A stretch of DNA of 64,000 nucleotides from Dehalococcoidia bacterium (GCA_965224255.1 CBDCYO010000005.1:963223-1027222), one strand, 5' to 3'; shown: positions 3,891 to 63,065, counted from the stretch's first letter. Program-made: numbers and translations. The notes: generated by a model not told the origin, from the sequence alone.

Positions 3891-4096
3891 GTCATTCTGA
3901 ACGGAACGTAGTGAAGTGAAGAATCTAAACGTGTGCGTCAGACCGTGCGTGTGCGTTCCGCCCCTGCGGCAGTTGGGAGCATAGATTCTTCGCTGCCCTC
4001 AGAATGACAGCCGCTACGCTCAGAATGACAGCCGCTACGCTCAGAATGACAGCCGCTACGCTCAGAACGACAGCCGCTACGCTCAGAATGACAGCC
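3891..4096. repeat. Composite palindromic intergenic repeat, copy A: core inverted repeat GAAGAATCTA...TAGATTCTTC (3920-3929 / 3982-3991), left arm GTCATTCTGAACGGAACGTAG, right arm five tandem 21-bp units CGCTACGCTCAGAATGACAGC
   Basis: Direct reading of sequence. Same family recurs at 6846-7268, 49766-49905, 57243-57603, 58700-59085 and 62725-63065. Confidence 0.9.
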
Positions 4097-4141
4097 AGCG
4101 CCTCCAGCAAGACACTCGCGGATGTCTACAATGGCAAGGCC

Positions 4142-5098
4142 ATGAGTGAGACACTCCATGTAGGCCCGCCGGAACTTGGGATCCAGACCGCGCCACTGGG
4201 CGTCGGCGCGTGGCCGTGGGGTTCGCGCTGGTATTGGGGCTACGGCAAGTCATTTGGCGCGGAAGACGTGCGCGGCGCGTTCCGAGCTTCCCTTGAAGCG
4301 GGCGTGTCACTATTCGATACGGCGGAGCTGTATGGGCGCGGCGAATCGGAGAGAATTCTCGGTCGACTAATACGGGAATGGACTGAGAACGGAGCCAGCA
4401 ATCAACCCGTCATCGCGACCAAGTTCCTTCCCGTTCCCTGGCGTGTGCGGCCTGGTGATCTACATCGGGCGCTTCGCGGCAGTCTACGTCGTCTGGGCGT
4501 GGAGAGCGTGGGGCTCTATCAAATTCACTGGCCAATTCCACCAGCCCGCCTGCGTCTCCGCCAGTGGATCAGCGGGCTGATCACGGCGCACGGCGAGGGG
4601 TTAGTGAAAGCCGTCGGCGTCTCCAACTTTGATGCAGACCTCATGCGTTACGCCCATGAGTTGTTGTCACGGGCCGGGATTCCGCTCGCGTCAAATCAGC
4701 TGCCGTATAGCCTGCTTGATCGCCACATCGAACGCGAGGGGCTGCTGGGCGCGTGCCGAGAGTTGGGCGTAACGGTCATTTCCTACAGCCCCTTGGCCGA
4801 AGGACTACTCACGGGTACCTACACCCCGGATAACAGGCCGGCGGGATATCGGGGCTGGCGACTCCGCAAGAAGGTGGGGCGTGTGCAGCCCATCATCGGC
4901 GTCTTGCGGGACATCGCTGCGCAACACCATGGCCCGACGCCGGCGCAGGTGGCGCTACGATGGCTCATCCAGAAAGGGACGATTCCCATCCCGGGCGCCA
5001 AGACCGCGCGGCAGGCAACGGACAACGCCGGCGCCCTCGGCTGGAGCCTCACCGGGGAGGATATGGCGGTCCTGGATGAGGCCTCGTCACGAGTGTAG
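4142..5098 (+). CDS. Aldo/keto reductase family oxidoreductase
   Basis: LGVGAWPWG ... AEDVRGAFRASLEAGVSLFDTAELYG ... IHWP ... AVGVSNF ... IPIPGAKT motifs. The track ORF starts at 4004 only because the tandem 21-bp repeat is in frame (MTAATLR x4); MSETLHV at 4142 is the plausible start. Confidence 0.85.
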   Translation: MSETLHVGPPELGIQTAPLGVGAWPWGSRWYWGYGKSFGAEDVRGAFRASLEAGVSLFDTAELYGRGESERILGRLIREWTENGASNQPVIATKFLPVPWRVRPGDLHRALRGSLRRLGVESVGLYQIHWPIPPARLRLRQWISGLITAHGEGLVKAVGVSNFDADLMRYAHELLSRAGIPLASNQLPYSLLDRHIEREGLLGACRELGVTVISYSPLAEGLLTGTYTPDNRPAGYRGWRLRKKVGRVQPIIGVLRDIAAQHHGPTPAQVALRWLIQKGTIPIPGAKTARQATDNAGALGWSLTGEDMAVLDEASSRV

Positions 5099-5188
5099 AC
5101 CGCGGTGCTTTACGCGCATTGCCGCGCGCCCATACGATTTGCCAATGAAGATCCCACGCACGGCCCATCACCGAAAGGAGGCGCGGCT

Positions 5189-5965
5189 ATGACGACGCAG
5201 TTGGACGAGGTGAAGCGGGAGGTTGCCATTGCCAATCGCGTACTGCCGGACATCGGTCTGGCGGCCGGCGTGCTCGGATCTCTCGGCCACGTGAGTATGC
5301 GTGTGCCGGACAACCCGGAGACCTTTGTGGTCAAGGGCCGCGGGTACGCTATCGATGCCCTGGCGCGCGTCGAGCCAGAGGGTATGGTCGTCTGCGACCT
5401 CGATGGCTTCAAAATCGGCGGCCCGCCGGGCATCACCCAGTGCTTCGAGGTCAAGATACACTCCGCCATGTACCGGGCGCGGCCGGATGTGCAGTCCATC
5501 GTCCATGTCCACCCGCGATTCGCCATCGTCATGGGAATCCTCGGCGCCACCCTCGTCCCGATGTGCCGTGAGGGAATGGAGCTTGTCGAACAGCCCGTTC
5601 CGGTCTATCCGCACAGCAAGCTGATACTCACGGAGGAGGATGGCATCGGCGTGGCGGAGACACTCGGTGAGGCGACGGTTCTCATGCTCCAAGGGCATGG
5701 CGCCGTGAGTGTCGGAACATCGACGGGCGACGCCGTGATGAACATGGCACACCTGGAGGAACAGGCGCGCATGAACTGGTACGCCTATGCCGCAGCCGGC
5801 CCGGGACACGCCCGTATCACGGAGGAACACATTGCGGAGAGCGCCGCGCAGCCCCCGACTGCTGAGTTGCCCCACTTCCGTGAGTTGGTGAGCGGCACAA
5901 GAGCACAGGCGGCTGTCGGCGGAGTATGGCGTCACCTGGCCGAGCTGGCGGCCCAGGGCATATAG
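5189..5965 (+). CDS. Class II aldolase/adducin-family protein (fuculose-phosphate-aldolase-like)
   Basis: ATG at 5189 preceded by AAAGGAGG; GSLGHVSMR ... VHVHP ... MLQGHGAVSVG fits the class II aldolase fold. Confidence 0.8.
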   Translation: MTTQLDEVKREVAIANRVLPDIGLAAGVLGSLGHVSMRVPDNPETFVVKGRGYAIDALARVEPEGMVVCDLDGFKIGGPPGITQCFEVKIHSAMYRARPDVQSIVHVHPRFAIVMGILGATLVPMCREGMELVEQPVPVYPHSKLILTEEDGIGVAETLGEATVLMLQGHGAVSVGTSTGDAVMNMAHLEEQARMNWYAYAAAGPGHARITEEHIAESAAQPPTAELPHFRELVSGTRAQAAVGGVWRHLAELAAQGI

Positions 5966-6040
5966 ACAGACGGGGGGCGCCTGCCGCGCCACCTGCCAGG
6001 ACGAGGCGTGTAGTCAGACGCGAGGAGGCTGGATTTAACA

Positions 6041-6817
6041 ATGGATTTAGGAATCGCCGGAAGAGTTGCGCTTGTCACGGGTGGTAGCCGGGGGCTCGGT
6101 CGTCAGGCCGCGCTGAGCCTCGCCGCGGAGGGTGTCAGAATCGCCATCTGCGCGCGCACACAGGAGAATCTGGACGCTATCTTGCCTGAACTCGCGGCGG
6201 CGGGCGCACCCGCCGCCGCCGCCATTGCCGCCGACGTGACCGATCCGCCATCGCTTGAGCGTCTGCATGACTCCATCGTCCACCAACTCGGTGCGATCGA
6301 TATTCTCATCAACAACGCCGGGGCCAGTCGACGCGGTGATGTCCTGGCCATCGGTGAACAGGAATGGGCGGATTTATGGGCGCTGAACGTCATGGCGCCT
6401 GCGCGCCTCAGCCGTCTCGTCCTTCCTGGGATGCAAGAGCGACAATGGGGCCGCATTGTCAACGTCTCCTCAATCTGGGGCCGAGAGCATGGCGGCGGCG
6501 TGGCATACATGACCACAAAGGCCGCCCTCATCGCCTTCACCAAGAGCACGGCGCTGAGTTACGCCAAGGACGGCATCCTCATCAACTCCGTCGCGCCGGG
6601 GTCCGTCGCCTTCCCAACGGGAAGCTGGGATCGGTTCCAAACGCAGAACGAGCCGGACGTCGTCCGCGATTTTGTTGAGCACAACCTGCCGATGGGACGA
6701 TTCGGATGGCCCGAGCCCGTCGGGGACCTCATCGCCTTCCTCTGTTCTGAGCGGGCCGGCTTCCTCACCGGGACGACAATCAACATCGACGGCGGCCAAT
6801 CAAAGACCCTGATCTGA
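6041..6817 (+). CDS. SDR-family short-chain dehydrogenase/reductase
   Basis: VALVTGGSRGLGRQAA (Rossmann TGxxxGxG), NNAG, YxxxK (YMTTKAAL) catalytic motif. Confidence 0.85.
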   Translation: MDLGIAGRVALVTGGSRGLGRQAALSLAAEGVRIAICARTQENLDAILPELAAAGAPAAAAIAADVTDPPSLERLHDSIVHQLGAIDILINNAGASRRGDVLAIGEQEWADLWALNVMAPARLSRLVLPGMQERQWGRIVNVSSIWGREHGGGVAYMTTKAALIAFTKSTALSYAKDGILINSVAPGSVAFPTGSWDRFQTQNEPDVVRDFVEHNLPMGRFGWPEPVGDLIAFLCSERAGFLTGTTINIDGGQSKTLI

Positions 6818-6845
6818 GCCGCCGCCCCTCCGCCATTGTGCACGC

Positions 6846-7268
6846 GCCCCCGCTGTCATTCCTAAGCGCCCCCGCTGTCATTCTGAGCGCCGCTGTCATT
6901 CCTAAGCACCCCCGCTGTCATTCTGAGCGCCCCTCCTGTCATTCCAGAGCGCCCCCTCTGCCATTCTGAGCGCCCCCGCTGTCATTCCTAAGCACCCCCG
7001 CTGTCATTCCGCCCCCCGCTGTCATTCTGAGCGCAGCGAAGAATCTACCTCCCCATTGCCGCAGGGGGGACACCCACCACACACACGGTCTGACACACAC
7101 GTTTGGATTCTTCACTCCACTACGTTCCGTTCAGAATGGCAGGGTGGCCGCTACGTTCCGTTCAGAATGACATGAGTGCCGCTACGTTCCATTCAGAATG
7201 ACATGAGTGCCGCTACGTTCCGTTCAGAATGACAGGGTGGCCGCGTTCCGTCGGGAATGGCGGGGTGG
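6846..7268. repeat. Composite palindromic repeat, copy B (largest, reverse orientation): about nine tandem ~21-bp units (CCCCCGCTGTCATTCTGAGCG-like), core GAAGAATCTA (7039-7048) ... TGGATTCTTC (7104-7113), then four to five tandem ~31-bp units (CGCTACGTTCCGTTCAGAATGACAGGGTGGC)
   Basis: Direct reading; long-core subtype shared with copy A (ACGTGTGTGTCAGACCGTGTGTG segment). Confidence 0.9.
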
Positions 7269-7303
7269 ATGCTGCCCTCCATCGCGTAGGGGCAGACGGC
7301 CTC

Positions 7304-8077: not shown

Positions 8078-8079
8078 GG

Positions 8080-9051: not shown

Positions 9052-9109
9052 GCTATGAAAATCGTAGCACGGCCACATCGGTCGTGAGCGCCCGGGCTGC
9101 TCGGCGTCG

Positions 9110-10084: not shown

Positions 10085-10351
10085 AGCGGATGCCCTGCCT
10101 CCCATGACCCGAATAACACCTCTTGGCGCAGGGAACACAGAGACGGGACGCAATGAACGCGACAACCTGGCAGGGTCTCCCGTAGGACACCAATTCGACG
10201 CCGCGACACGGGCTGCCACAGCATCAGCCGCCGCCTCATCGTTCCTGCCGCCTCCCCGCGCTAGTGGACGGCAGTTTTCGAACTCAGTCCAAAATCTATT
10301 GTCCGCTATGTGTCAACCCCACAGCGAGCATGGGGGAACGCCCGGTGAGCC

Positions 10352-13438: not shown

Positions 13439-13483
13439 AGCAACGTCAGTGTAGCAACAATGCGCCCCATTCCCGACGGCGCG

Positions 13484-16882: not shown

Positions 16883-17368
16883 GTGACGTGGAGGCGGAGT
16901 GAGCCGCATTTCCATAACGAATCCCCAGCCCCGAACGATTCTCCCTTCTTCACAGAAATCCTTTGGCACTGTTCCACATGTCTGCAGCCGCACGTCTTTG
17001 ACCTTCTCAAAAATGCCGCTCGGGTTGCGAGCGAGGTATCCCTCTATGGTCGTGCCATTCGGCCGGACATCACACTGTTCGATGATAAGGACACGCCCGT
17101 GGCCTTTTTCGAATTCAAAAAGACCAACCTGAGCAAGAAAGTGGAACTCATCGCAAAAGAGAAGGGCATTCCGTTGTTTGTTATAGACGTGACCGAAGAT
17201 GGCGCAGAACGCCGAATGCTGCACAATCCTCAGGATAGATGGTGGAAGCACGCGCCGGAGGTGACCGAGGAGACCAGTTCATTCCTTGAAGCTTCGGGTT
17301 CCCTGAAGCTTCGGGTTCCCTGCCAGGTCCAAGCATGGAACGACTCTTCGATGAGAACAGCAAATTGA
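16883..17368 (+). CDS. Hypothetical small protein with a candidate PD-(D/E)xK nuclease motif (lower-GC islet)
   Basis: RPDITLFDDKDTPVAFFEFKKT matches the D ... (hydrophobic)3-E-x-K pattern of restriction-endonuclease-fold proteins; preceded by a Cys/His patch (HCSTCLQPH). Local GC ~50-52% versus ~64% elsewhere. An antisense ORF (16841..17251) competes. Confidence 0.4.
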   Translation: MTWRRSEPHFHNESPAPNDSPFFTEILWHCSTCLQPHVFDLLKNAARVASEVSLYGRAIRPDITLFDDKDTPVAFFEFKKTNLSKKVELIAKEKGIPLFVIDVTEDGAERRMLHNPQDRWWKHAPEVTEETSSFLEASGSLKLRVPCQVQAWNDSSMRTAN

Positions 17369-43981: not shown

Positions 43982-46868
43982 TCAGCGCTCGCCCGCCCCC
44001 TTCGTGCCACTGACGGCCGCGGATCGAGAGCACATGCTTGATGCCATCGGCCTGAATGATGTCGATGACCTGTTCACTGACATCCCTGCTGACTATCGCA
44101 ATCCATCTCTCAACCTGCCGCCTGCGCTTTCTGAACACGATGTCGTCAGCCATATGCGAGATCTGGCCGCCAAGAACGTATCGTCAGATGCTGCGCCGTC
44201 GTTTCTGGGCGGAGGATTCGCGCGTCATTTTGTGCCGAGTGTGGTTGGCGCCATCACATCACGTGGTGAATTCCTGACGCCCTACACGCCCTACCAGCCA
44301 GAAGCCAGCCAGGGCATCCTTCAGGCGCTCTTTGAGTATCAGACCGTTGTGTGTGACCTCACGGGCATGGATGCCTCCAACACCGGCATGTATGACGGAG
44401 CGAGTGCCCTGGCGGAAGCCGCCCTCATGGCGTGTCGGCTCACGCGCCGCCATGTCGTCGCCGTGCATGCGAGTGTCTCCCCCATCTATCGCGCCGCGCT
44501 TGAGACGTATGCGGGTGCACAGGAGATTGCCATCACCGATGGACTCGATACCGCCGCTGAGGGTGAGCTAGCCTGCCTGCTCGTCCAGCAGCCGTCATAT
44601 GACGGCGTCATCGATGACGCCGTCGACGATCTGGCCGAGGCGATTCACACGCGGGGAGGGCTGCTCATCATGGCCGTGGAGCCAGTTTCCCTTGCTGTGC
44701 TCAGGCCGCCCGGCGACTACGGCGCGGACATCGTTGTCGCAGAGGGCCAACCGCTGGGTATCGCGCTGGGATTTGGCGGACCGGGAGTTGGATTCTTCGC
44801 ATGTCGGAACGAGTACCTGCGACAGATGCCCGGCCGCATCGTCGGACGAAGCGTTGATGCCGCCGGGCGCGACGCGTTCGTGCTGACGCTTCAGACGCGT
44901 GAGCAACACATTAGACGCGAGAAGGCGACGTCCAATATCTGCACGGCCGAGACGCTTGCGGCGATTGCCGTTGCCGTTCACACTGCCGTCCTGGGGCCAC
45001 ATGGCCTGCGCGAAATCGCCTTCACCTGCTATCAGGCAGCGCACCACGTGGCACGACGCATCACCACCCTGCCCGGGTATGCCCGTCACGGCGGCGATAG
45101 CGCGCGCTTCGTCAAAGAATTCGTCGTCGAATGCCCCATCCCACCTGCTGAGGTGAATCGGCGGCTGTGGGAAGACTACGGAGTCATCGGCGGCATCGAC
45201 GTGTCAGACCGTGTCCCGAACGGCCTTCTGCTGTGCGTAACGGAGACAAACTCCGCCGCAGATAGTGATCGCCTTGTTTCCGCTCTCGCGGACATCGCGG
45301 GCGTATCCGAACACGCGACGGCCGTTTCCTCAGCTGATCGCACACTGGCAGACTGGCACAGCATCACCACGCCCCCGGCCGGCAGAGGGGGCATCCTCGC
45401 CGGCGAGGATGCCCCCTCTGGTCAGACCCCGCTGTTATTGGACATCTCGCGGCCGGGGCGACGTGGCGTTACGACGCCTGCACCCGTCGTTCCGCCAACT
45501 GAGCCACCATTGCCGTCCACCCTGTTGCGCCGCGAATTACGGCTGCCGGAGGTGAGTGAGCTGGACGTCATGCGCTATTTCACCCGCATCAGCCAGTCCA
45601 ACTACTCCGTTGATACGACTTTCTATCCGCTGGGCTCATGCACGATGAAGTACAACCCACGCGTGAATGAAACCGTCGCCGCCATGCCCGGCTTCGCCAA
45701 CGCGCACCCCTACCAACCGGCCGAAACCTCGCAGGGAACGCTGGAGGCGCTCCATGGCCTGCAAGAGATGTTGGCCACCGTCGTTGGGATGGATGCAACG
45801 AGTCTTGCGCCGTCCGCCGGAGCGCATGGCGAACTCACCGGAATGCTCCTCTTTCGCGCCTACCACCGCAGTCGAGGAGATGACGCCCGCGCCGTCATTC
45901 TCTCCCCTGATTCGTCACACGGAACCAACCCGGCCTCTGCCACAATGGCCGGGTTCACACTCGTGACCGTGCCGACGGACAACGTCGGCAACATTGATAT
46001 GGACGTGCTGCGCTCTCTACTCGGGCCGGACGTGGCCGGCATCATGCTGACAATGCCGACGACGCTCGGGCTCTTCGATCCACAGACGCCGGAGATTTGC
46101 CGTCTCGTGCATGAGGCGGGCGGCCTTGTCTATGGAGACGGAGCCAATCTGAATGCCCTGCTGGGACGTGCGCGGCTTGGCGATCTCGGTTTTGACATCG
46201 TTCACATCAACGTTCACAAAACGTTTTCCACACCACATGGTGGTGGTGGCCCCGGCGCCGGCCCCATCTGCGTGACTGAGCGCCTCGCGGAGTTCCTCCC
46301 CACGCCGCACATTGCACGACGGGCCGATGGTCTGTTTCACCTCGTGAATCCGTCCGGCACGGTCGGCCGCATCGGCTCCGCGGCGGGCAACGTCGGCGTT
46401 CTTCTTCGCGCGTATACATACATCCGCATGCACGGCGCGGACGGCCTGAGAGCGGTCAGCGGCGCTGCCGTCCTGAACGCCAACTACCTTCGTGCCCAGC
46501 TCAGCGAGCACTACGATTTGCCCTATGATCGCGTCTGCATGCATGAGGCGGTGTTTTCCGCCACGCGGCAGCGCCGTGGACGAGGCGTGCGCGCCGGCGA
46601 CATCTGCAAACGGCTCCTCGATTACGGATTCTATGCGCCGACCGTGTATTTCCCGCTGATCGTGGACGAGGCGTTGATGATCGAACCGACGGAAACGGAG
46701 AGTCTGGAGACACTGGACGCATTCGTCGAGGCGATGGCGTCCATCGCGCAAGAGGCATCGGAAAATCCGGACCTGGTGCGCGGGGCGCCGCACACGACAC
46801 CCGTCCGCCGCATCGATGAAACGCTCGCCGCTCGCCGCCCCGTGTTGCGGTGGGCACCGAGAGAGTGA
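43965..46868 (+). CDS. gcvP: Glycine dehydrogenase (decarboxylating), single-chain fusion of subunit-1-like (PA) and subunit-2-like (PB) halves joined by a Pro/Thr/Arg-rich linker
   Basis: 967 aa. N-terminal half begins like GcvPA (LTAADREHMLDAIGLNDVDDLF). After the linker the second half begins like GcvPB (LLLDISRPGRRG ... LPEVSELDVMRYFTRISQSN ... GSCTMKYNP). Confidence 0.85.
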   Translation: MAAVTNQRSPAPFVPLTAADREHMLDAIGLNDVDDLFTDIPADYRNPSLNLPPALSEHDVVSHMRDLAAKNVSSDAAPSFLGGGFARHFVPSVVGAITSRGEFLTPYTPYQPEASQGILQALFEYQTVVCDLTGMDASNTGMYDGASALAEAALMACRLTRRHVVAVHASVSPIYRAALETYAGAQEIAITDGLDTAAEGELACLLVQQPSYDGVIDDAVDDLAEAIHTRGGLLIMAVEPVSLAVLRPPGDYGADIVVAEGQPLGIALGFGGPGVGFFACRNEYLRQMPGRIVGRSVDAAGRDAFVLTLQTREQHIRREKATSNICTAETLAAIAVAVHTAVLGPHGLREIAFTCYQAAHHVARRITTLPGYARHGGDSARFVKEFVVECPIPPAEVNRRLWEDYGVIGGIDVSDRVPNGLLLCVTETNSAADSDRLVSALADIAGVSEHATAVSSADRTLADWHSITTPPAGRGGILAGEDAPSGQTPLLLDISRPGRRGVTTPAPVVPPTEPPLPSTLLRRELRLPEVSELDVMRYFTRISQSNYSVDTTFYPLGSCTMKYNPRVNETVAAMPGFANAHPYQPAETSQGTLEALHGLQEMLATVVGMDATSLAPSAGAHGELTGMLLFRAYHRSRGDDARAVILSPDSSHGTNPASATMAGFTLVTVPTDNVGNIDMDVLRSLLGPDVAGIMLTMPTTLGLFDPQTPEICRLVHEAGGLVYGDGANLNALLGRARLGDLGFDIVHINVHKTFSTPHGGGGPGAGPICVTERLAEFLPTPHIARRADGLFHLVNPSGTVGRIGSAAGNVGVLLRAYTYIRMHGADGLRAVSGAAVLNANYLRAQLSEHYDLPYDRVCMHEAVFSATRQRRGRGVRAGDICKRLLDYGFYAPTVYFPLIVDEALMIEPTETESLETLDAFVEAMASIAQEASENPDLVRGAPHTTPVRRIDETLAARRPVLRWAPRE

Positions 46869-46899
46869 CCGCAGGCACAGAGCAGGGGTAGGTGGGAAC

Positions 46900-49722
46900 A
46901 TGGCCATGCCGCAACCAGGTCCGGATGTCGTGCGAGAGGAGGTCTACAACGTTTCCCTTGCGGAATTGCTGCGAGAGAGGGGCGTTCCTGCACGGGCGGA
47001 ACGGCGGGAACAGCGGGGAACTCCAGACGTGCTGGTGCAGCTATCCCGACACGATCAGATTCTCCTTGAGTGCAAATATGAGGGCGGGCGCGCCACCCTA
47101 GAACGCCAACTCGATGAGCGACTGAAGGCCTACCCAGAAAAGCTGGGCATTGTTGGTGTTATCTACCCGGATCGATTTCGCTATGCGGATGATCCGGCGC
47201 AGGCGCTCGCGGACGCCGATGATCTGGAGTGGTGGCTGCACAGTTCCCAGGGCACGTTTCAGGCGCTGAAGCAACCACGCCGTGGCGGCGTGGCGGATTT
47301 GGCAACGCACATCCCCGGCCTCCCACTTGAGATTGAAGGGACCGACCGTGTTATTGCAGCGACGGCCGCGGTGGGATACGCGCTACAACAATCATCCAAG
47401 ACCATTGGCGCCCACGCGCGCATCGCCTCCCGCATCGCGGCGGTCATCACAGAATCGGATCGCGAGACGAACATGTCTGCCGCGCTGCATATTGGCACGC
47501 TTGTCGTATTCAACGCGTTGGCCTTTCAGGACCGTCTGGCGGAAATAAACGGCAACGTCGAAACCGTTGAGGAGTCGCTGGGCGGCAGCGTGTCGAACCT
47601 CCGCGCCGTGTGGAAGCGCATTTGCGATACCATCGACTATGTGCCGGTCTTTGACCTTGCTGAGCGGATTCTGGCGATTCTAGAGGACGCGCCCAGACCC
47701 GTCGCGCAGGACGCCATTACGCCGTTGCACTGGGCCGTGCGGCAGACGCGCACCATGCAAGGCCATGACCTCTCCGGCCGCCTCTTTCACACCCTGCTGA
47801 GTGATGCCAAGTTTACCGGCGCCTACTACACGTCCATCCCCGCGGCCACCATGCTCGCTCACCTGGTCTTCACCAATTGGCCGCGCGGCGCGGACTGGTC
47901 CGACTATGAATGGCCGGGATCCCTGACGATTGCCGATATCGCCTGTGGCACCGGCACTCTGCTCATGGCCGTCGCCCAGGAGGCGGAGCGGCGTCACCTG
48001 CAGGCCGGCGGCACCAATGCCGCCCTGCTTCACAAAACCCTCGTCGAAAAATCCCTCCACGGGTATGACGTGCAACTCTCCGCGATTCACTTCGCCGCCA
48101 CCAGCCTCGCCATGCTCAACCCGCACATTGAGTTCGACCGCATGAACCTGACTGTGATGCCGTATGAGGTTGACGCCGAGACCGTGCATTTGGGCTCGTT
48201 GGACTTCCTGCTTGATGTGGAGTCCGTGCCGGCGCAGTTCGCGCTGTCACCGGAAATCGCCCCCTCCCCCCCCCCAGATATGGGTGGGCAACGCCTTACC
48301 GGTCAAGGTGTAGGGGCACGGGACGAACGGCGCGCCACTCTGCCGACCCTGGACCTCGCCATCATGAACCCGCCGTTTACGCGGGCAAACAACCTCTTTG
48401 GCGGCCAACCTCCGGTTGAGCGCAAGGTGATACAACAGGAACTCGGGAGAAGGCTGCGTTCCAGAGGCGCATCATCGACCGCGGGGCTGGGCTCCGCCTT
48501 CGTGGCCACTGCCATTCCCAAGCTGCGGGAAGGTGAGGGTCGCCTCGCACTCGTCCTGCCCCTGACCGTCTGCACAGGCCCCTCATGGGCGCAAACGCGA
48601 GAGCTTATCGAGCGCGAATTCACCATCGACTACGTCGTCACGTCACACGATCCCCTTCGGCCGAATTTCTCCGATAGCACCGACCTGTCCGAGGCGCTGT
48701 TGGTCGCGACGCGGCGGCGTGGGGACGCATCGGACGATGAGCACCGGATAACGTTCATCAACCTCTGGCACAACCCGGAAGGTGTGTTCGACGCGCAGCA
48801 GGCGATACGCGCAGCGAGTAACACACCTGCTGCGCACATCGAAGGGCGCGGCTCCACGCTCGTCCGAACGAATACTGAGGACGTGGGCGAAGTCTTCTCG
48901 ATGGCGCAAAAAGAACTGGAAGGCCGCAAGTGGTTCGGCGTTCAGTTCGCGCGGGCGGACGTTGCGCGCATCGCGCTGCGGCTCCTGCGCGACGGTGACG
49001 TGTGGATACCCGGCTCGTTGGGCGTCGGCCACGTCGCGATGGCGCCGCTAGCTGAATTAGGAGATTTGGGCCCGGACGGCAGAAGACTGATGGACGGGTT
49101 TACTCGCACCGATTCAGTCACGGCCTATCCGATGGTCGAAGAGCACGACACGGAGTCTCGAAAGACGCTTGGCACGAGTCCAAACAAGTATTTTGTTCCT
49201 CTTCCGGTTCCTAGAGGTGGTCAGCGGCCTGGGTATGGCGACCACCTGTGGCAGCAGGCGGCACAGCTACTACTCGCGGAGCGGCTACGGCTCAATACCG
49301 CGCGCATCGTGAGCATGTACTGCGACCGACGCGTGCTGTCCAACGTTTTTTGGGAGGTAATAACGGAGAACCCTGCGCAGGACATGGCTCTCTGCCTCTG
49401 GCTCAATAGCTCCTTGGGCGTCCTCGGGATCCTTGCAACGAGAAATACCACAATGGCGAGTTGGGCTAAGTTCAAGAAAGCGGATCTTCAGCAGATGCCC
49501 GTGCTTGATGTGCGCACACTGTCTGAGGGGCAGTTGGCGGAGTTGTCCGCGTTGTTTGATGAGATTGCGGAGATGGAGTTTGAGCGTTTGCCGGCCATGG
49601 TGCACTGTCCGGCGCGGCGCGCAGTGGATGACGGCCTCTCACGGATTCTCGGCCTGCCGGATCTGGCGCCCCTGCGTGAGCTGCTCGCCACGGAGCCGGT
49701 GGTCTCCGGCAAGCGCCTGTAG
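46900..49722 (+). CDS. Second fused endonuclease-methyltransferase (Type IIG-like): N-terminal PD-(D/E)xK, gamma-class N6-adenine MTase, C-terminal recognition region
   Basis: ~940 aa. N-terminal TPDVLVQLSRHDQILLECKYE (D ... E-C-K). Motif I IADIACGTGTL. Motif IV LDLAIMNPPFTRAN (NPPF). Contains an in-frame C10 homopolymer at 48266-48275. Start at ATG 46900 just after the gcvP stop. Confidence 0.65.
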   Translation: MAMPQPGPDVVREEVYNVSLAELLRERGVPARAERREQRGTPDVLVQLSRHDQILLECKYEGGRATLERQLDERLKAYPEKLGIVGVIYPDRFRYADDPAQALADADDLEWWLHSSQGTFQALKQPRRGGVADLATHIPGLPLEIEGTDRVIAATAAVGYALQQSSKTIGAHARIASRIAAVITESDRETNMSAALHIGTLVVFNALAFQDRLAEINGNVETVEESLGGSVSNLRAVWKRICDTIDYVPVFDLAERILAILEDAPRPVAQDAITPLHWAVRQTRTMQGHDLSGRLFHTLLSDAKFTGAYYTSIPAATMLAHLVFTNWPRGADWSDYEWPGSLTIADIACGTGTLLMAVAQEAERRHLQAGGTNAALLHKTLVEKSLHGYDVQLSAIHFAATSLAMLNPHIEFDRMNLTVMPYEVDAETVHLGSLDFLLDVESVPAQFALSPEIAPSPPPDMGGQRLTGQGVGARDERRATLPTLDLAIMNPPFTRANNLFGGQPPVERKVIQQELGRRLRSRGASSTAGLGSAFVATAIPKLREGEGRLALVLPLTVCTGPSWAQTRELIEREFTIDYVVTSHDPLRPNFSDSTDLSEALLVATRRRGDASDDEHRITFINLWHNPEGVFDAQQAIRAASNTPAAHIEGRGSTLVRTNTEDVGEVFSMAQKELEGRKWFGVQFARADVARIALRLLRDGDVWIPGSLGVGHVAMAPLAELGDLGPDGRRLMDGFTRTDSVTAYPMVEEHDTESRKTLGTSPNKYFVPLPVPRGGQRPGYGDHLWQQAAQLLLAERLRLNTARIVSMYCDRRVLSNVFWEVITENPAQDMALCLWLNSSLGVLGILATRNTTMASWAKFKKADLQQMPVLDVRTLSEGQLAELSALFDEIAEMEFERLPAMVHCPARRAVDDGLSRILGLPDLAPLRELLATEPVVSGKRL

Positions 49723-49765: not shown

Positions 49766-49905
49766 CCATGTCATTCTGAACGGAACGTAGCCCCCTCTGT
49801 CATTCTGAACGGAGCGTAGTGGAGTGAAGAATCTAACCCGCCTTTGCCGCAATGAAGACGTAGATTCTTCGCTACGCTCAGAATGACAGGAAGGCGGCTC
49901 AGAAC
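49766..49905. repeat. Composite palindromic repeat, copy C (short-core subtype), immediately after the Type IIG-like gene
   Basis: GTCATTCTGAACGGAACGTAG x2, GTGGAGTGAAGAATCTAAC-CCGCCTTTGCCGCAATGAAGACG-TAGATTCTTCGCTACGCTCAGAATGACAG. Confidence 0.9.
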
Positions 49906-49986
49906 GGCAGGGGGGCCGACCGGTAGAGGAGCGGCGCCGGGCGGCGCGGCAGCATGAACGGGAGCGTAGCGCGAGAGGATGAAAAA

Positions 49987-56624: not shown

Positions 56625-56632
56625 CCATCCGG

Positions 56633-57205
56633 ATGCGGTTGATCCCCGGCTTGCTGATGACAGCGTTGCTGCTTGGAATGCTGCTGCTCGCGGTTGGGTG
56701 CAGCTCAACCGCGCCGGATGAATCGCCCGCTCAGAAGCCGGCAACCGCGCCCGCGGATACGTCACCACCACTCGGTAATCGCGTTGGTGAGCGCGCCCTT
56801 GATTTTACCGTTACGACAACGTCCGGTGAGATGCGCTCCCTCACTGATTTCATGGCGGCCAATCAGCCCGTTATCGTCTATTTCTTTGCAACCTGGTGAC
56901 CATCGTGTCGGTCCGAGTTGCGGACCCTCAAGAGTGTTTACCCCGACTACCAGGATGATATCGGCTTCATTGCGGTTGACGTCGATCCGTCTGAGGACGC
57001 TGAGCATATCGCGACGTACGCCGCACAACAGGCCTATCCATGGGAGATGGCCACGTATGACGGCGGCATTCTCGTTGACTACGCAATCACGAGTCAGGCA
57101 TCCAAAATCGTGATTGATGCCGATGGAATTATCACGCTGCGCGGAACGTACGGGACACTATCCGAACGTGCATGGCGGGACGCGCTAGACGCAGTGACGG
57201 CATGA
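56633..57205 (+). CDS. TlpA/ResA-like thiol:disulfide oxidoreductase lipoprotein with in-frame TGA (56897-56899) at the first Cys of the CxxC motif; candidate selenoprotein (UxxC), or a pseudogene
   Basis: Lipoprotein signal MRLIPGLLMTALLLGMLLLAVGCSS. Both flanks of the TGA are in the same frame and give QPVIVYFFATW-[TGA]-PSCRSELRTLKSVYPDYQDDIGFIAVDVD, the canonical thioredoxin-fold WCxxC context. Hairpin GGTCCG-AGTTG-CGGACC begins 11 nt after the TGA. Confidence 0.55.
56910..56926 (+). promoter_or_regulatory. Candidate bacterial SECIS-like stem-loop (GGUCCG AGUUG CGGACC) 11 nt downstream of the in-frame UGA
   Basis: 6-bp perfect stem with 5-nt loop containing GU, positioned at the distance expected for bacterial SECIS elements. 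Confidence 0.4.
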
Positions 57206-57242
57206 TGCATCTCACCGTTTGGGCGACACGCAGCGACTCCCA

Positions 57243-57603
57243 CACGCCATTCTGAACCACGCTCCTCACACGTCGCTTGGGTGACGCTGCGCGTCACCCT
57301 GCCGTTCTCACCGGAACATAGCGACTCATCATGTCATTCCCAACGGAGCACAGCCGTCCCATGATCCTGAGCGGAACGTGGCCGCCCAGCGTGTCATTCT
57401 GAACGGAACGTAGCCCCACCCTGTCATTCTGAACGGAACGTAGTGGAGTGAAGAATCTAACACGCCTCTGCCGCAGTAGGGACATAGATTCTTCGCTGCG
57501 CTCAGAATGACAGAGAGGACGCTCAACAATGACAGAGAGGACGCTCAACAATGACACAGGGGGCGCTTCAGAATGACACAGGAGGCGCTTCAGAATGACA
57601 ACG
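57243..57603. repeat. Composite palindromic repeat, copy D (short-core), with degenerate left-arm units and four right-arm 24-bp units (GGACGCTCAACAATGACAGAGA-like)
   Basis: Core GAAGAATCTA (57451-57460) ... TAGATTCTTC (57485-57494). A separate 9-bp stem hairpin GGGTGACGC-TGC-GCGTCACCC at 57278-57298 lies at the 5' edge. Confidence 0.9.
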
Positions 57604-57686
57604 GGCGCCATGCCCGAACTGGCGCACGCCATCACCGTGCCTGCTACAATCGCGGTTGCGATGAGATGACGTGAGAGGACGACCCC

Positions 57687-58592
57687 ATGACGACTGAGAA
57701 CCGGCCCAGCGGCCCACCCGAGCCCGTCGACGATGAGAGCGGCGGGACTCCTGTCCTGTATGAAAAGACGGACGACGGCATCGCGATTGTGACGCTGCAC
57801 CGCCCCGGCGTGCTCAACGCCATCAACGGGGATATGACGCAGGCACTTCGTGAGGCGCTTACCACCGCAGACACGGACGATGATATTCGTGTCGTCATTC
57901 TGCGTGGCGCGGGCCGTGCATTTTCCGCCGGCGGCGATATCACGGAATCGTCGCGCCGGATTCTAGCGAACGATGAATCGCAGGAGCGCGGGACGCCCGG
58001 CGCGGCGCACATCGCGGTATGGGAGCTGGGAAAGCCGGTCATCGCAGCAGTACACGGATACGCAATCGGGCTGGCCTTTGAGCTGGCCGGGGTGTGCGAT
58101 TTCACGGTGTTGGCGGAGGACGCGAAGGTGGGCGAGATTCAGATTCGGCACGGCTACGGCCCCCCGGTCCTCATGACGCCATACATTGTCACGCTCAAGC
58201 GCGCAAAGGAAATTCTGCTTCTGGGGGATATGGTCGACGCGCGTGAGGCTCTGGCGATGGGATTAGTAAATCGCGTGGTGCCCGCAGAGGGTGTGATGGA
58301 TGAGGCGATGTCCATCGCGCGGCGCATCGCGGCACTGCCGGCGGCGACGGTCAGAATGAACAAGGCGTTGATCAATCGAGCATATGAGGTCGGGGGATTC
58401 CGATCCGCGCTGAATTATCGAGATGAGCCCGCCTTCGCAGACCTGTGGGCGTCATCGCAGCAGGATGAGGAGACGCGGGAGCGTTTGCAGGTTCTGCAGG
58501 AGCGCGGCTGGGAAGCGTTTCGCAATGAGCGCGACGCGCGGTACCACGGCCGCACGACGGAGGAAGAGGCCGCCGCCCGAGACCGGAGATAG
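57687..58592 (+). CDS. Enoyl-CoA hydratase/isomerase (crotonase) family protein
   Basis: IAIVTLHRPGVLNAING ... GAGRAFSAGGDI ... AAVHGYAIGLAFELAGVCDF crotonase-fold motifs. Confidence 0.85.
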   Translation: MTTENRPSGPPEPVDDESGGTPVLYEKTDDGIAIVTLHRPGVLNAINGDMTQALREALTTADTDDDIRVVILRGAGRAFSAGGDITESSRRILANDESQERGTPGAAHIAVWELGKPVIAAVHGYAIGLAFELAGVCDFTVLAEDAKVGEIQIRHGYGPPVLMTPYIVTLKRAKEILLLGDMVDAREALAMGLVNRVVPAEGVMDEAMSIARRIAALPAATVRMNKALINRAYEVGGFRSALNYRDEPAFADLWASSQQDEETRERLQVLQERGWEAFRNERDARYHGRTTEEEAAARDRR

Positions 58593-58699
58593 TTTACATC
58601 CCGGTCTTCGGTGACAACGCTACATAAAGGCCTCCGCCCGCGAAGGGGGATAGCCGGCCCGTGCCGAGCACCCTGTGGTTCCTCGCGCGACGTCAGCAC

Positions 58700-59085
58700 C
58701 ATACCGTTCTGAACCCCGCTCCCCACATGCCATTCCGGACAGGACGGCCCCGCTCTCCTCCATATCTGCTACCGCCGGAGCGTAGCGACTCCCCCGTCAT
58801 TCCGAACGGAACGACGCGACGCTCCCACCATGCCATTTGAACGACGCGCAGCGGCACCATGTTAGTCCGAATGGCGCGCCCCACTTCGTCATCCTGAACA
58901 GCGCGTTCCCCCTTTTGCCATTCTGAACGGAACGGCGCCTTCCTCATGTCATTCTGAACGGAACGAAGTGGAGTGAAGAATCTAACGCGCCGTATGCCGC
59001 AGTGGGAACGTAGATTCTTCGCTACGCTCAGAATGACAGAAGGGCGCGTCAGGACTGACAGTGAGGCGCTCAGGACTGAACAGTG
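58700..59085. repeat. Composite palindromic repeat, copy E (short-core), same orientation as copy D
   Basis: Degenerate left-arm units (CCATTCCGGACAGG, CGTCATTCCGAACGGAACG, GCCATTCTGAACGGAACGG, GTCATTCTGAACGGAACGAAG), core GAAGAATCTA (58974-58983) ... TAGATTCTTC (59011-59020), right-arm units GCGTCAGGACTGACAG. Confidence 0.9.
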
Positions 59086-59126
59086 CAGCACCAGGGGTGT
59101 TCGTGTCTGCTGTCGGTGCCTGAAAA

Positions 59127-59858: not shown

Positions 59859-59907
59859 CGTCTTTTGGAGCGGGCCGCCCTACGGTGGCGTGAGGACTCT
59901 GGGGGAG

Positions 59908-59994
59908 TGGTGCCGGGGGAGGGACTCGAACCCACACTCCTTTTTGGGGAAGCGGATTTTAAGTCCGCCGCGTCTGCCATTCCGCCACCCCGGC
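59908..59994 (-). tRNA. tRNA-Leu (anticodon UAA), type II with long variable arm, CCA encoded
   Basis: Minus-strand sequence GCCGGGGTGGCGGAATGGCAGACGCGGCGGACTTAAAATCCGCTTCCCCAAAAAGGAGTGTGGGTTCGAGTCCCTCCCCCGGCACCA. 7-bp acceptor stem, anticodon stem GCGGA/TCCGC with loop CTTAAAA, GGTTCGAGTCC T-loop region. Confidence 0.8.
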
Positions 59995-60067
59995 GCGTGA
60001 TTTAACTCACATAACCGAGGGCACTCGTCGACGCGATGTGACATCCTGTTACTCGGCCTCACTCAGA

Positions 60068-60334
60068 TCAGGCCGCCGGCGCCTTGTTCAGCAGTCGCGC
60101 CAAGCGACTCTTGCGCCGGTCCACATTCTTCCCGTGCAGCGTCCCCTTGCCCTTTGCGCGATCAAGCTCAATCATCGCGCTCCGTACAGCCTCCTGCGCA
60201 CCCTGTGAGCCTTCGGCGATGGATTCACGGGCACGGCGAATCAGTGTCCTGACTGTCCGATTGCGATGGCGGTTCACGTCGCGCCGCCTGTCCGACTGCC
60301 GATGTGCCTTCGCCGCCGAGATTCCCTTTGCCAC
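60068..60334 (-). CDS. rpsT: 30S ribosomal protein S20
   Basis: Small basic protein MAKGISAAKAHRQSDRRRDVNRHRNRTVRTLIRRA ... matches S20. Confidence 0.85.
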   Translation of the reverse strand: MAKGISAAKAHRQSDRRRDVNRHRNRTVRTLIRRARESIAEGSQGAQEAVRSAMIELDRAKGKGTLHGKNVDRRKSRLARLLNKAPAA

Positions 60335-60340
60335 GTTCTC

Positions 60341-62689
60341 TTACTCCTCGTCTTTGTACGCTTTTTGTTCGGCAGCCCTCGCACGCAGTACCGCCCCTGC
60401 CATTTCTTGTCCAGAGCCCCGCCCGCCACGCGGGCTATGCGTCGATGTCCGGTAGACGGTGATCACTCCAGGGAGGTCCTCAAGCCGTGACATCATCCGA
60501 CTTACCTCTGAAAGACCACTTGCCTCAACCGTGAGCGTTATCGTAACCGTGCGATCCGCATTGTGTCTATCACGCACGCCTGTAATGTTGATGTGATCGG
60601 CGGACACCAAGGTCGTGATATCGCGCAAGAGCCCGACGCGATCCTGTGACGAGATGACGACACTCGCCGGGTATTTCTGTTCGAAGTCCGGCCAGGTTAC
60701 CTGCATCAGGCGCTCTGGTTCATCTTCATTCACGACGTTGTTGCAGTCACGCCGATGAACGGTGACCCCACGGTTGCGGGTAATGAATCCGATGATTTCT
60801 TCGCCCGGCATGGGCCGGCAGCATGGCGCAGAGCGCGCTGGTGTCGCCCCGAGGCCGTGCACGTTGACGGAAAGTTCACCGCTTGATGGCCGCACATGAA
60901 TCGTCTCCGCCTTTTCATTAGGAGGCGCAAGCCGCGCTGCGATCTGGTTAACACCAACCTGTCCGGTGCCAAGAGACAGGATGAAATCATCCGCCGTTTG
61001 ATAGCCAAACAGTGTCGCAAGATGGCGCGGGTCAAGGTGCACGCCCAGGCGCCGCGCCTCTCGCTCAAGTAATTGACGCCCACGTGCGACGCTCTCAGAC
61101 CGTTCCTGCACACGGAACCAGTAGCGAACTTTGGAGCGCGCCAACTCCGTGCGTACATATCCCCGGTCAGGATTCAGCCAATCCAGGCTCGGCCCCTTTT
61201 GATTCTTGGATTGGATGATCTCAACGGTGTCGCCGTTATGAAGGGTGTAGCTGAGGGACACCATCCGCCCATTCACCTTTGCTCCCACCGCTCCGTATCC
61301 GATGTCCGTGTGGATTCGGAAAGCGAAATCCAGCGGCGTTGAGCCTGCTGGCAGCTCACGTATCTCACCCCGCGGCGTGTACACATACACCTGGTCAACA
61401 AGAATCTCACGCTTGAGCTGATCCACAAACTCCTGTGCGCCGACGACGTCTCGCTGCCAATCAAGTAATTGCCGGAGCCACGTGATGCGCTCATCGAACT
61501 GGCTATCAACTGCACCTTCCTTGTAGCGCCAGTGTGCTGCGATGCCGTACTCCGCCGTCTGATGCATGCCCACCGTCCGTATCTGGACCTCCAGCGGGTT
61601 GCCATCCGGCGTCATCACCGTCGTGTGGAGTGATTGATAGCCCGTCTCACGCGGGTTGGCGATGTAATCATCAAACTGGCCGGGAAGTGGCCGCCAGAGT
61701 CCGTGAACGACTCCCAGCACTGCGTAGCAGGCGTGCACATCTCGCGCCACGATGCGAACAGCTTGCAGGTCGTTGATATCCTCGAATTCCCGTCCCATCT
61801 CGCGGTACCGATCCATCTTCTGCGCGATGCTGTAGATGCTCTTTGTCCTTCCGGTAATCTCGACGTCCTTCAAATCCTGCGCCGCAAGTGTCTCTCGCAG
61901 AACGCGCAGCGCCTCTTCCACACCCGTCTCACGCTCCGTCAAGCGTGTGGCCGCTTGCGCGGCCACACGCTGATGCCGGGCGGGCTCCAAGTGGAGAAAC
62001 GCTAGGTCATTCAGTTCAGACTCGATACTGTCAATACCCAACCGATGCGCTAGGGGCGCGTAGATGTCTCGCGTTTCCACCGATATTCGATATCGCTGGT
62101 CGGACGACAGCGCGTCCAATGTCCGCATGTTATGTAAACGATCCGCTAACTTGATGAGGACGACGCGCACATCCTGCGCCATTGCCAGCAGCATCTTGCG
62201 CAGGCTCTCCGCCTGAAACCCACTCGCCTGTTCGGGCTGCGCTGCCGCTCCGTTCGCGTCCTGTCGCGTTTGTCCGGACAGGCGTGACAGTTTCGTCACG
62301 CCGTCCACCAGCCCCGCTACCTCCGCTCCAAATTGCTCGCGTATTTCATCGAGCGTGATGGGCGAATCTTCAACGACGTCATGCAATAGCGCCGCTTGCA
62401 GCGTCGGCGCATCAAGCATCTCGACGTCTGTCAAAATGAGTGCCGTCCCGAGCGGATGGCAGATGAACGGCTCGCCGGATTTTCGGAACTGTCCATCATG
62501 GGCACGCTCCGCCGTCCCATACGCCTGGCGTATGGCAGCAATACGCTCCGGCGTGAGTCTCTGCGCTAAAAGTCGCGCCTCAAGCTCAGGATAGCCCAGG
62601 CGACTAGGATCAGCTGATGTAGATCTGGCCGTGTTGCTCACAGCATTCACAGCAGCGCCATCGTCAGTAGCCGACCGTCTGGTGTCCAT
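60341..62689 (-). CDS. relA: Bifunctional (p)ppGpp synthetase/hydrolase RelA/SpoT (Rel)
   Basis: HD hydrolase domain (HPLGTALIL ... HDVVED), RelA/SpoT synthetase domain, TGS and C-terminal ACT domains; 782 aa. Confidence 0.9.
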   Translation of the reverse strand: MDTRRSATDDGAAVNAVSNTARSTSADPSRLGYPELEARLLAQRLTPERIAAIRQAYGTAERAHDGQFRKSGEPFICHPLGTALILTDVEMLDAPTLQAALLHDVVEDSPITLDEIREQFGAEVAGLVDGVTKLSRLSGQTRQDANGAAAQPEQASGFQAESLRKMLLAMAQDVRVVLIKLADRLHNMRTLDALSSDQRYRISVETRDIYAPLAHRLGIDSIESELNDLAFLHLEPARHQRVAAQAATRLTERETGVEEALRVLRETLAAQDLKDVEITGRTKSIYSIAQKMDRYREMGREFEDINDLQAVRIVARDVHACYAVLGVVHGLWRPLPGQFDDYIANPRETGYQSLHTTVMTPDGNPLEVQIRTVGMHQTAEYGIAAHWRYKEGAVDSQFDERITWLRQLLDWQRDVVGAQEFVDQLKREILVDQVYVYTPRGEIRELPAGSTPLDFAFRIHTDIGYGAVGAKVNGRMVSLSYTLHNGDTVEIIQSKNQKGPSLDWLNPDRGYVRTELARSKVRYWFRVQERSESVARGRQLLEREARRLGVHLDPRHLATLFGYQTADDFILSLGTGQVGVNQIAARLAPPNEKAETIHVRPSSGELSVNVHGLGATPARSAPCCRPMPGEEIIGFITRNRGVTVHRRDCNNVVNEDEPERLMQVTWPDFEQKYPASVVISSQDRVGLLRDITTLVSADHINITGVRDRHNADRTVTITLTVEASGLSEVSRMMSRLEDLPGVITVYRTSTHSPRGGRGSGQEMAGAVLRARAAEQKAYKDEE

Positions 62690-62724
62690 GACTGCTACAG
62701 TTTACCGCGTACCTGATCACGTAC

Positions 62725-63065
62725 GTCATTCCAGCCTGCCCGTCGTCAATCCGGGGGGCTGTCCACACGCCCCTCTGTCATTCGTGAGCCTCACGCCGTC
62801 TGCCATTCGTCTGCCCCTCCTCTGTCATTCTGAGCGTAGCGAAGAATCTATGTCCCCATTGCCGCAGATACGCGTTAGATTCTTCACTCCACTTCGTTCC
62901 GTTCAGAATGACATGGTGGGGCTACACTCCATCAGGAATGACGGGCGCGGCGCGGACGTTCCATCAGGAATGACGGGCGCGGCGCGGACGTTCCATCAGG
63001 AATGACGTGCGCGGGGCGGGCACCCTGCCCGGAATGACGTGTGAGGGGCGTCCGCCCCGTTCGGA
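62725..63065. repeat. Composite palindromic repeat, copy F (short-core, reverse orientation) with 32-bp tandem units CATCAGGAATGACGGGCGCGGCGCGGACGTTC
   Basis: Core GCGAAGAATCTA (62838-62849) ... TTAGATTCTTCAC (62875-62887); flanking GTCATTCG/GTCATTCTGAGCG units and three or four right-side units ending in CCGGAATGACG. Confidence 0.9.

Follow-up and report, generated by a model that had tools for sequence, protein, structure and literature searches.

Single-domain nucleases of the GIY-YIG family have recently been tied to short hairpin repeats in bacterial chromosomes. SsnA of Neisseria meningitidis, a 94-amino-acid (aa) single-domain GIY-YIG protein (CDD cd10448), binds the NTS hairpin repeat CGTCATTCCCGCGMAVGCGGGAATCYRG (CGTCATTCCCGCG..GCGGGAATC) only as single-stranded DNA (ssDNA), not as RNA, and cuts a few nucleotides (nt) 5′ of the repeat (Chenal et al. 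2025, Nat Commun 16:2388, PMC11893778). Cleavage depends critically on the bases immediately 5′ of the palindrome, the GTC(A/T)Y head, and binding on the C that follows it. Repeats termed Ssn-related motifs (SRMs), imperfect hairpin-forming palindromes of 20-50 nt, flank ssn genes in many phyla, and the NTS-ssnA-NTS layout has been likened to an insertion sequence; an SsnA homologue is missing from 19% of the genomes that contain over 200 repeats. The SRM search sequence, HGTCWYN(0-2)YYVSBRHN(0-5)WNVSBRGN(0-2)RNCYNB, was drawn up from 29 genomes and is a search tool rather than a functional definition (Chenal et al. 2025, PMC11893778). Here we analyse six composite palindromic elements, A to F, in a stretch of 64,000 nt from a Dehalococcoidia bacterium (GCA_965224255.1, CBDCYO010000005.1:963223-1027222), which as a whole is called the window, and compare their hairpin motifs with the NTS repeat and its relatives.

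We propose, with a probability of roughly 70%, that the elements in the window are clusters of Ssn-related, NTS-like ssDNA hairpin motifs that have no nuclease gene of their own. The proposal draws on the sequence frame of the motifs, on their arrangement, and on the genes that lie between related hairpins in other phyla.

The hairpin motifs and their distribution

Each core consists of two convergent hairpin motifs of one frame, GTC-ATTCT-GA-[insert]-GA-AGAAT-C. The long form, L, measures 35 nt (GTC-ATTCT-GA-ACGGAACGTAGTGGAGT-GA-AGAAT-C), while the short form, S, measures 25 nt and lies on the strand opposite to L (GTC-ATTCT-GA-GCG(T/C)AGC-GA-AGAAT-C); a variable spacer of 25-56 nt separates the two. 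The GTCATTC head is kept in 11 of the 12 central motifs, the exception being the L motif of element B, which reads GCCATTC. The ATTCT...AGAAT-C frame of an SRM-like imperfect palindrome with its 3′ C is present in the window motifs, and by their sequence frame they belong with the NTS-like repeats.

The motifs are not confined to the window. A scan of one genome per species (596 Gb) with the 19-mer GTGRAGTGAAGAATCYAAM returned at least 93 loci (94 matches). About 62 of the 94 matches listed contain a complete L motif, in which the 20 nt upstream, outside the search pattern, read GTCATTCTGAACGnAACGnA; about 30 of those listed are chance or coding matches, our own chance estimate for this pattern in 596 Gb being about 35. 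Hosts of the L hairpin include Chryseobacterium, Flavobacterium, Myroides and other Bacteroidota, Ignavibacteriota with Melioribacter, Calditrichia, Nitrospinota, and many Dehalococcoidia and other Chloroflexota, at genome GC contents of 0.29-0.65. No fewer than 12 further Chloroflexota genomes contain the whole L(+)-spacer-S(-) module, and when the modules of the window were aligned with those of four Chloroflexota genomes the L and S arms were nearly invariant and the spacers unrelated. The view of an earlier note on this DNA that the family is distinct in sequence is therefore not sustained, given the L motif in about 62 of the loci listed, the module in at least 12 Chloroflexota genomes, and the frame GTCATTC...GAATC of NTS/dRS3.

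Closer to the source, its RelA places the next relatives at 76-84% identity, with more distant named matches in Chloroflexota, Dehalococcoidia and SAR202. No composite element was found in three relatives across 66 kb around relA. In one close relative an S-type variant, GTCATTCCGAGCGCAGCGAGGAATC, stands alone and shows compensatory changes in its stem; the same relative holds CGTCATTCCCGCGAAAGTGGGAATCCAG, one mismatch away from the Neisseria NTS consensus. Canonical NTS-like repeats also stand beside L/S modules in the Dehalococcoidia loci L010, L031, L060 and L062.

Several variants of the hairpins were seen in passing. In four Dehalococcoidia loci (L010, L031, L060, L062) L-type hairpins have an inner insert of about 24 nt, CCCTTCGGCTATGCTCAGGGTAAACT. 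On low-GC, Ignavibacteria-like JGI metagenome contigs (L108-L111, L115, L119) the L/S module lies inside a larger element whose outer inverted repeats read CACCTTACGCAAGGT ... TTGCGTAA(C/G)GTGAG. In the Bacteroidales metagenome-assembled genome (MAG) AS10tlH2TH_145 (L001, L004, L046, L076, L079, L082) and in L013 a conserved 33-nt sequence, AACCAATATTATTAATTTAATCGGACAGTAGTG, lies behind the L hairpin; this combination, found on at least six contigs, has no S arm and represents a different composite on the same hairpin.

Searches in other directions were negative. Among viral contigs (IMG/VR) the core 19-mer had 17 matches, none of them an element (16 fall in one phage coding gene and 1 is unrelated), and literal repeat strings sought in the literature met unrelated primer matches only. 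A direct target-site duplication of at least 2 bp was absent in 36 of 37 L-S modules.

Association with ssn genes

In several other genomes a gene replaces the spacer between the hairpins, and every gene so placed is a single-domain GIY-YIG nuclease homologous to SsnA (L028, L040, L045, L095, L138). In a Chryseobacterium sp. (L028, gene 2037-2372) a 111-aa open reading frame (ORF) with a GIY-YIG domain (Pfam, 1e-15) starts 15 nt after the L motif, and behind it comes a short element, complete and reversed; the whole unit lies between trpD and trpC. The same hairpin(+)-gene-hairpin(-) design is seen in C. formosus (L045), with the L hairpin ahead of the gene, and in a Melioribacter MAG (L040), with a related (+) hairpin ahead of the gene and the L type behind it on the other strand. 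Mangrovimonas cancribranchiae (L095) has four gene copies within 6.3 kb, three of them identical and all of 101 aa; in each unit 2-4 tandem (+) hairpins come first, then the L motif at a distance of about 20 nt from the ATG, the gene, and a (-) hairpin.

On plasmid p1 of Planktothrix agardhii (L138, gene 1195-1479) the ssn gene lies between MmeI and DrmA (DISARM). It is flanked by tandem arrays of half-units (GTCATTCTGAG plus 12 nt, period 23) that lead into convergent S/L-like pairs, which is the design of the window composites, in the same frame and with related variants. On a plasmid of Azospirillum lipoferum 4B (L139, 1189-1482) a homologue between sufB and sufC is flanked by canonical NTS-like repeats.

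The link to SsnA itself was drawn through the Mangrovimonas protein, which matched a gonococcal chromosome in PLSDB with 41% identity (tblastn, E=3e-11). The matched N. gonorrhoeae ORF encodes 94 aa and shows the Y6, Y17 and E64 reported for SsnA; around it, nine exact copies of NTS lie within 3.2 kb. Compared with the hairpin-flanked GIY-YIG ORFs it gave E values of 1e-11 to 6e-15 (phmmer), and the catalytic residues are kept in an alignment of seven sequences from four phyla. In the PDB there was a weak match only, to the UPF0213 protein 1zg2, and in NCBIfam there were only sub-threshold matches to group I intron endonucleases. We note that L104 (NZ_CP119140.1) and NZ_CP119142.1 are 2.17-Mb N. 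gonorrhoeae chromosomes filed as plasmids in PLSDB.

Arrays of such hairpins can differ in length between near-identical assemblies. Two assemblies of one flavobacterial species have identical Ssn and flanks that are 98-99.5% identical, and the array behind ssn differs by about 260-300 bp, with nine motifs in one and five in the other, so that arrays of this kind are truly variable in number. Behind the ssn gene in L096 (3300-4000) and L098 (3300-3700), three hairpin subtypes are interleaved: a long and a short one with ATTCT, and one with ATGCC, GTCATGCCGACGAAAGGAGGCATC.

Covariation in the hairpin stems

For the analysis of covariation we collected frames of the form GTCA-N4-GA...GA-N4-TC, in which complementarity was not required. 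The four variable positions of the outer stem are Watson-Crick paired in 167 of 250 frames, with six different variants: TTCT/AGAA (132), TTTC/GAAA (11), TGCC/GGCA (9), TTCC/GGAA (6), TCCT/AGGA (4) and TCCC/GGGA (2). The single lineage-specific exception, TTCA/AGAA, accounts for 33 cases in Flavobacteriia. Inside the S form, pair 1-7 of the inner 7-mer is GC in 32 cases and AT in 15, pair 2-6 is CG in 38 and TA in 4, and the loop reads GNA in 44 of 49; the inner 7-mers of S motifs are GCGCAGC, GCGTAGC, ACGAAGT and GCGAAGC. The stem positions thus covary across genomes, and a local hairpin fold for L and for S is, as judged from sequence comparison, supported but not proven.

The six elements in the window

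The earlier note had recognised six composite, strictly intergenic elements in the window, and in both respects our data agree with it. Each core half was matched six times (at most 3 mismatches), always at these six places, with 0 matches expected from shuffled sequence, and direct reading of the sequences bears this out; all six elements are intergenic. The head GTCATTCTGA (at most 1 mismatch) occurs 30 times within the elements, counted as the element spans plus 120 bp on each side, and 5 times in the rest of the 64-kb window. The features are as follows, with coordinates counted from the first letter of the window and the strand given where one applies.

3891-3925, plus strand: A, L hairpin motif GTCATTCTGAACGGAACGTAGTGAAGTGAAGAATC
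3926-3983: A, long spacer with ACGTGTGCGTCAGACCGTGCGTGTG insert and CTGCGGCAG
3984-4008, minus strand: A, S hairpin motif GTCATTCTGAGGGCAGCGAAGAATC
4009-4096, minus strand: A, right arm of four 21-bp half-units (GTCATTCTGAGCGTAGCGGCT), 95% alike
6846-7020, plus strand: B, S-side arm of about 7-8 half-units of about 22 bp (GTCATTCTGAGCG / GTCATTCCTAAGC plus C-rich spacer)
7021-7045, plus strand: B, S hairpin motif GTCATTCTGAGCGCAGCGAAGAATC
7046-7105: B, long spacer, in reverse orientation relative to that of A
7106-7140, minus strand: B, degenerate L hairpin motif (GCCATTCTGAACGGAACGTAGTGGAGTGAAGAATCC)
7141-7268, minus strand: B, L-side arm of three 31-bp half-units and one degenerate half-unit
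49766-49798, plus strand: C, one left half-unit
49799-49833, plus strand: C, L hairpin motif
49834-49862: C, short spacer (TTGCCGCAA)
49863-49887, minus strand: C, S hairpin motif
49888-49908, minus strand: C, one degenerate right half-unit
57243-57422, plus strand: D, left arm of decaying half-units of about 30 bp
57423-57457, plus strand: D, L hairpin motif
57458-57486: D, short spacer (CTGCCGCAG)
57487-57511, minus strand: D, S hairpin motif
57512-57603, minus strand: D, right arm of four 22-bp half-units
58700-58947, plus strand: E, left arm of about 8 decaying half-units
58948-58982, plus strand: E, L hairpin motif
58983-59012: E, short spacer
59013-59037, minus strand: E, S hairpin motif
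59038-59085, minus strand: E, right arm of degenerate 21-22 bp units
62725-62823, plus strand: F, S-side arm of degenerate half-units
62824-62848, plus strand: F, S hairpin motif
62849-62877: F, short spacer
62878-62912, minus strand: F, L hairpin motif
62913-63065, minus strand: F, L-side arm of 32-bp units, 96% alike

Some details of the first description need revision. The 10-bp inverted repeat said to be perfect in each core is so in five copies and reaches 9/10 in B (TGGATTCTTC); it exists because L and S both end in GAAGAATCTA and face each other. Its halves lie 25-26 nt apart in C-F and 54-56 nt apart in A and B, instead of 5-40 nt. The TGCCGCAG reported from the core is present and is really a near-palindrome, CTGC(C/G)GCAG; in the L-to-S orientation, elements C, D and E have TGCCGCA where A, B and F have TGCGGCA. 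An invertible spacer was considered and rejected, the central motif being simply near-palindromic. Together the elements cover 1,857 bp, or 2.9% of the window, where about 1.6 kb (2.5%) had been estimated.

The arms are, as had been described, tandem arrays of 21-32 bp units, and arrays with periods of 21, 22, 31 and 32 bp found by Tandem Repeats Finder coincide with them. The units are not whole copies of the core arm, however, but half-motifs (head plus mini-hairpin) that carry only the 5′ half of the motifs, with every head pointing inward. The L-side unit consists of GTCATTCTGAACGGAACGTAG plus 8-10 nt and the S-side unit of GTCATTCTGAGCG(TAGCG) plus a spacer. Units resemble each other more within an arm than between arms, up to 95-96% in the right arm of A and in F, and we therefore conclude that the arms grew by local amplification and not by independent insertions. 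Outer arm units are visibly decayed in D and E.

Element A is flanked by the divergent starts of a gene with an NYN domain and an aldo/keto reductase (AKR) gene; B, C and E each lie between convergent gene ends, and D and F each between tandem genes. The true start of the AKR gene is at 4142, with the Pfam domain beginning at residue 18, and its apparent N-terminal extension, MTAATLRMTAATLRM..., is a translation of the repeat of element A itself. In all, spurious ORFs or N-terminal extensions encoded by the repeats lie at 4004-4141, 57294-57800 (minus strand), 58693-59091 (minus strand) and 62631-63005 (plus strand), with products such as MTAATLRMTAATLRM... and ...CHSERSEES.... Repeats of this family yield spurious ORFs and false N-terminal extensions in annotation, with a risk of mis-annotated genes.

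Three further features of the window are recorded here. Beside element C, positions 46816-49722 (plus strand) hold a 968-aa ORF with motifs like those of S-adenosylmethionine-dependent methyltransferases (DIACGTGTLL, NPPF) and no Pfam match at 1e-5; it may encode an unusual DNA methyltransferase or restriction-like enzyme. The approximately 620 bp upstream of element D (56625-57243) are without a convincing gene, the sole ORF (56673-57113) looking spurious. At 17282-17322 there is a 17-bp tandem repeat, TTCCCTGAAGCTTCGGG, of 2.4 copies, itself a small palindrome and unrelated to the hairpin family.

Discussion

Since hairpins of this frame bracket an ssn homologue in other phyla, the modules in the window look like gene-less counterparts of those units, and judging by their sequence they are best read as MITE-like (miniature inverted-repeat transposable element-like) derivatives of hairpin-ssn-hairpin units. 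In their clustering they look like the bacterial interspersed mosaic elements (BIMEs) and the Neisseria intergenic mosaic elements (NIMEs). We infer that an Ssn is encoded elsewhere in the source genome and acts on L and S motifs, and that slippage induced by its nicks could have given rise to the arms. When the DNA turns single-stranded, during replication, repair or DNA uptake, each strand would fold its motif; the cognate Ssn would bind the motif by sequence and shape, and its nick would be expected to fall a few bases 5′ of GTC. Such nicking might limit or redirect recombination at motif sites, and the breaks, together with slippage, may drive expansion and contraction of the arms.

Several observations weigh against an assignment of the window elements to the Ssn-related hairpins. 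With hidden Markov models and regular expressions we found no ssn homologue in the 64-kb window, in the 66 kb of three relatives or in the sampled Chloroflexota loci; a metagenome pattern for a Chloroflexota ssn (L hairpin, ATG and VYI) had 0 matches, and the 15 metagenome loci that were found to contain Chloroflexota-type L hairpins are mostly low in GC and have no ssn. The best 120 matches of an Ssn profile search comprised Flavobacteriia-like proteins only and no Chloroflexota Ssn. The published SRM pattern, which finds the 9 gonococcal NTS copies and 7 repeats in Dehalococcoidia loci, has 0 matches in the window; as it recovers canonical repeats but nothing here, the L/S motifs have to be regarded as a divergent subtype. 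Half-units of the arms are without the 3′ half of the motif and for that reason cannot be complete substrates alone. Several of the cross-phylum loci derive from MAGs, which may contain binning errors, and for a few of the MAGs among the L-hairpin hosts the binning is doubtful. Finally, nearest-neighbour DNA parameters do not predict the isolated L and S motifs to be stable (z about 0), and in the whole core they favour strong long-range pairing between L and S (-21 kcal/mol, z = -5). Standard parameters do not capture d(GCGNAGC) mini-hairpins or tandem sheared G.A pairs, both of which have unusual stability in DNA.

The alternative that survives best is that the elements are orphan relics, descended from Ssn-associated hairpins in a genome that has lost the nuclease or never had it, which now change only by replication slippage and recombination and perhaps form cruciforms or stabilise transcript ends as a side effect. 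The missing ssn in the window and in the relatives' loci would fit, as would the decayed outer arm units, the three relatives without composites, and the 19% of repeat-rich genomes that have no SsnA homologue (Chenal et al. 2025, PMC11893778). We nevertheless consider this unlikely: the six copies hardly differ in their central L and S motifs, and other Chloroflexota have identical ones, a pattern that speaks for activity in the recent past or for continuing constraint, and the 95-96% homogeneity of some arm arrays indicates recent amplification.

A role at the level of RNA, as terminators, stabilisers of mRNA 3′ ends or small RNAs, appears quite improbable. Three of the six elements do lie between convergent genes, and the folding of the whole core (z = -5) would suit a transcript structure. 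The elements have no T-tracts or terminator-like sites, however, and the terminator function once suggested for them finds no footing: T-tails are missing and element A sits between divergent promoters, at gene starts rather than gene ends. Equivalent motifs stand on both strands, sequence and not just pairing is conserved across phyla, and SsnA binds no RNA (PMC11893778). The single terminator-like match nearby is a separate GC stem at 57602-57616, beside the right arm of D. Rfam has no match over elements D and E at E<=1, and in the whole window only a tRNA-Leu reaches the gathering score.

Even less probable, in our judgement, are REP/BIME-type repeats (repetitive extragenic palindromes and their mosaics) mobilised by a RAYT, an IS200/IS605-like Y1 transposase. 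For such a cognate IS200/IS605 TnpA or RAYT, which the earlier note had proposed to look for, the loci examined offer a different enzyme, the gene between the hairpins always being a single-domain GIY-YIG homologue of SsnA and never a Y1 (HUH) transposase. Points in favour are the palindromic, intergenic and mosaic nature of the elements, their two orientations, the lack of target-site duplications, as with IS200/IS605, and a GTAG that precedes part of the L motif in the window; yet this GTAG has an internal position and becomes GNAG when genomes are compared, the stems are rich in AT and not in GC, and the conserved head is GTCATTC, as in NTS. Classical MITEs derived from an insertion sequence with a DDE transposase are the least probable origin of all, for despite inverted arms, small size, multiple copies and the extra outer inverted repeats of some Ignavibacteria-like copies, 36 of 37 modules show no target-site duplication and the full-length counterparts carry a GIY-YIG gene of about 100 aa instead of a transposase. 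Of the first comparison with MITEs and REP/BIMEs, what stands is the structured, multi-copy palindromic mosaic with REP/BIME-like organisation, and the classical MITE falls away. Integron attC sites were also considered and rejected: ATCTAAC conforms to RYYYAAC, but its GTT partner lacks conservation, and TCTAAA is what the majority of genomes have.

Beyond the assignment to Ssn-related hairpins, a further-reaching idea deserves mention, which we hold tentatively and regard as possible though doubtful. The hairpin-ssn-hairpin unit might be an autonomous mobile element whose sole enzyme is a GIY-YIG ssDNA nuclease of about 100 aa, with L-spacer-S modules as its non-autonomous derivatives in at least 5-6 phyla, spread by horizontal transfer, and with half-motif arms as scars of Ssn nicking and repair. 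Hints in this direction are the near identity of the 35-nt L hairpin from Chloroflexota to Bacteroidota, the insertion of ssn units inside operons or defence loci (sufB/sufC, trpD/trpC, MmeI/DrmA), the four Mangrovimonas copies in 6.3 kb, the absence of target duplication, and the three relatives of the source without composites. Against it, the ssn of Echinicola is found at a single conserved locus in all assemblies, and that of P0076 is likewise fixed. If true, such units would constitute a new class of prokaryotic transposable element.

Ssn nucleases were described in 2025, mainly in Proteobacteria. The L/S subtype is widespread, extending through Chloroflexota, Bacteroidota, Ignavibacteriota and Cyanobacteria, and as the published pattern misses it, the reach of Ssn systems has probably been underestimated. 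L and S oligonucleotides provide concrete substrates for biochemical work, and the series from gene-less to gene-bearing units bears on the mobility of Ssn units.

Comparison with known systems

The closest described system is the NTS/dRS3 repeat with SsnA (PMC11893778). It has the frame GTCATTC-[palindrome]-GAATC in common with the window motifs; in either case the repeats are multi-copy and intergenic, alternate in orientation, and flank a single-domain GIY-YIG gene for a protein of about 94-103 aa, the L/S subtype doing so in other phyla. The interior of the stem in the window is a GNA mini-hairpin bracketed by GA, not a continuous GC stem, and the window adds a 35-nt long form, a fixed convergent L/S pair and tandem arms of half-motifs. 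The host of these L/S motifs belongs to the Chloroflexota, and no ssn was seen within the 64-kb window.

For the inner part of the S motif the nearest parallel is structural. Hirao and co-workers are said to have characterised DNA mini-hairpins of sequence d(GCGNAGC), in which a GNA triloop is combined with sheared G.A pairs; the inner 7-mers and GNA loop of the S motif correspond to these as a structural analogy only.

At the level of clusters, the NIMEs of Neisseria, reportedly described by Parkhill and co-workers in 2000 as RS units of 50-150 bp bounded by dRS3, likewise fill intergenic regions with many hairpin repeats in alternating orientation. In NIMEs, RS sequences lie between full dRS3/NTS copies, whereas the arms in the window consist of 21-32 bp half-motifs in one orientation per arm.

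With REP/BIMEs and RAYTs (Nunvar 2010, PMC2817692; Ton-Hoang 2012) the elements have in common hairpin-forming extragenic palindromes arranged in mosaics, a tie to a domesticated enzyme acting on ssDNA, and the absence of target duplications. The enzyme there is of the HUH/Y1 type and the head is GTAG, in contrast to GIY-YIG and GTCATTC for the L/S motifs, and REPs are species-specific, whereas the L/S repeats are conserved across phyla.

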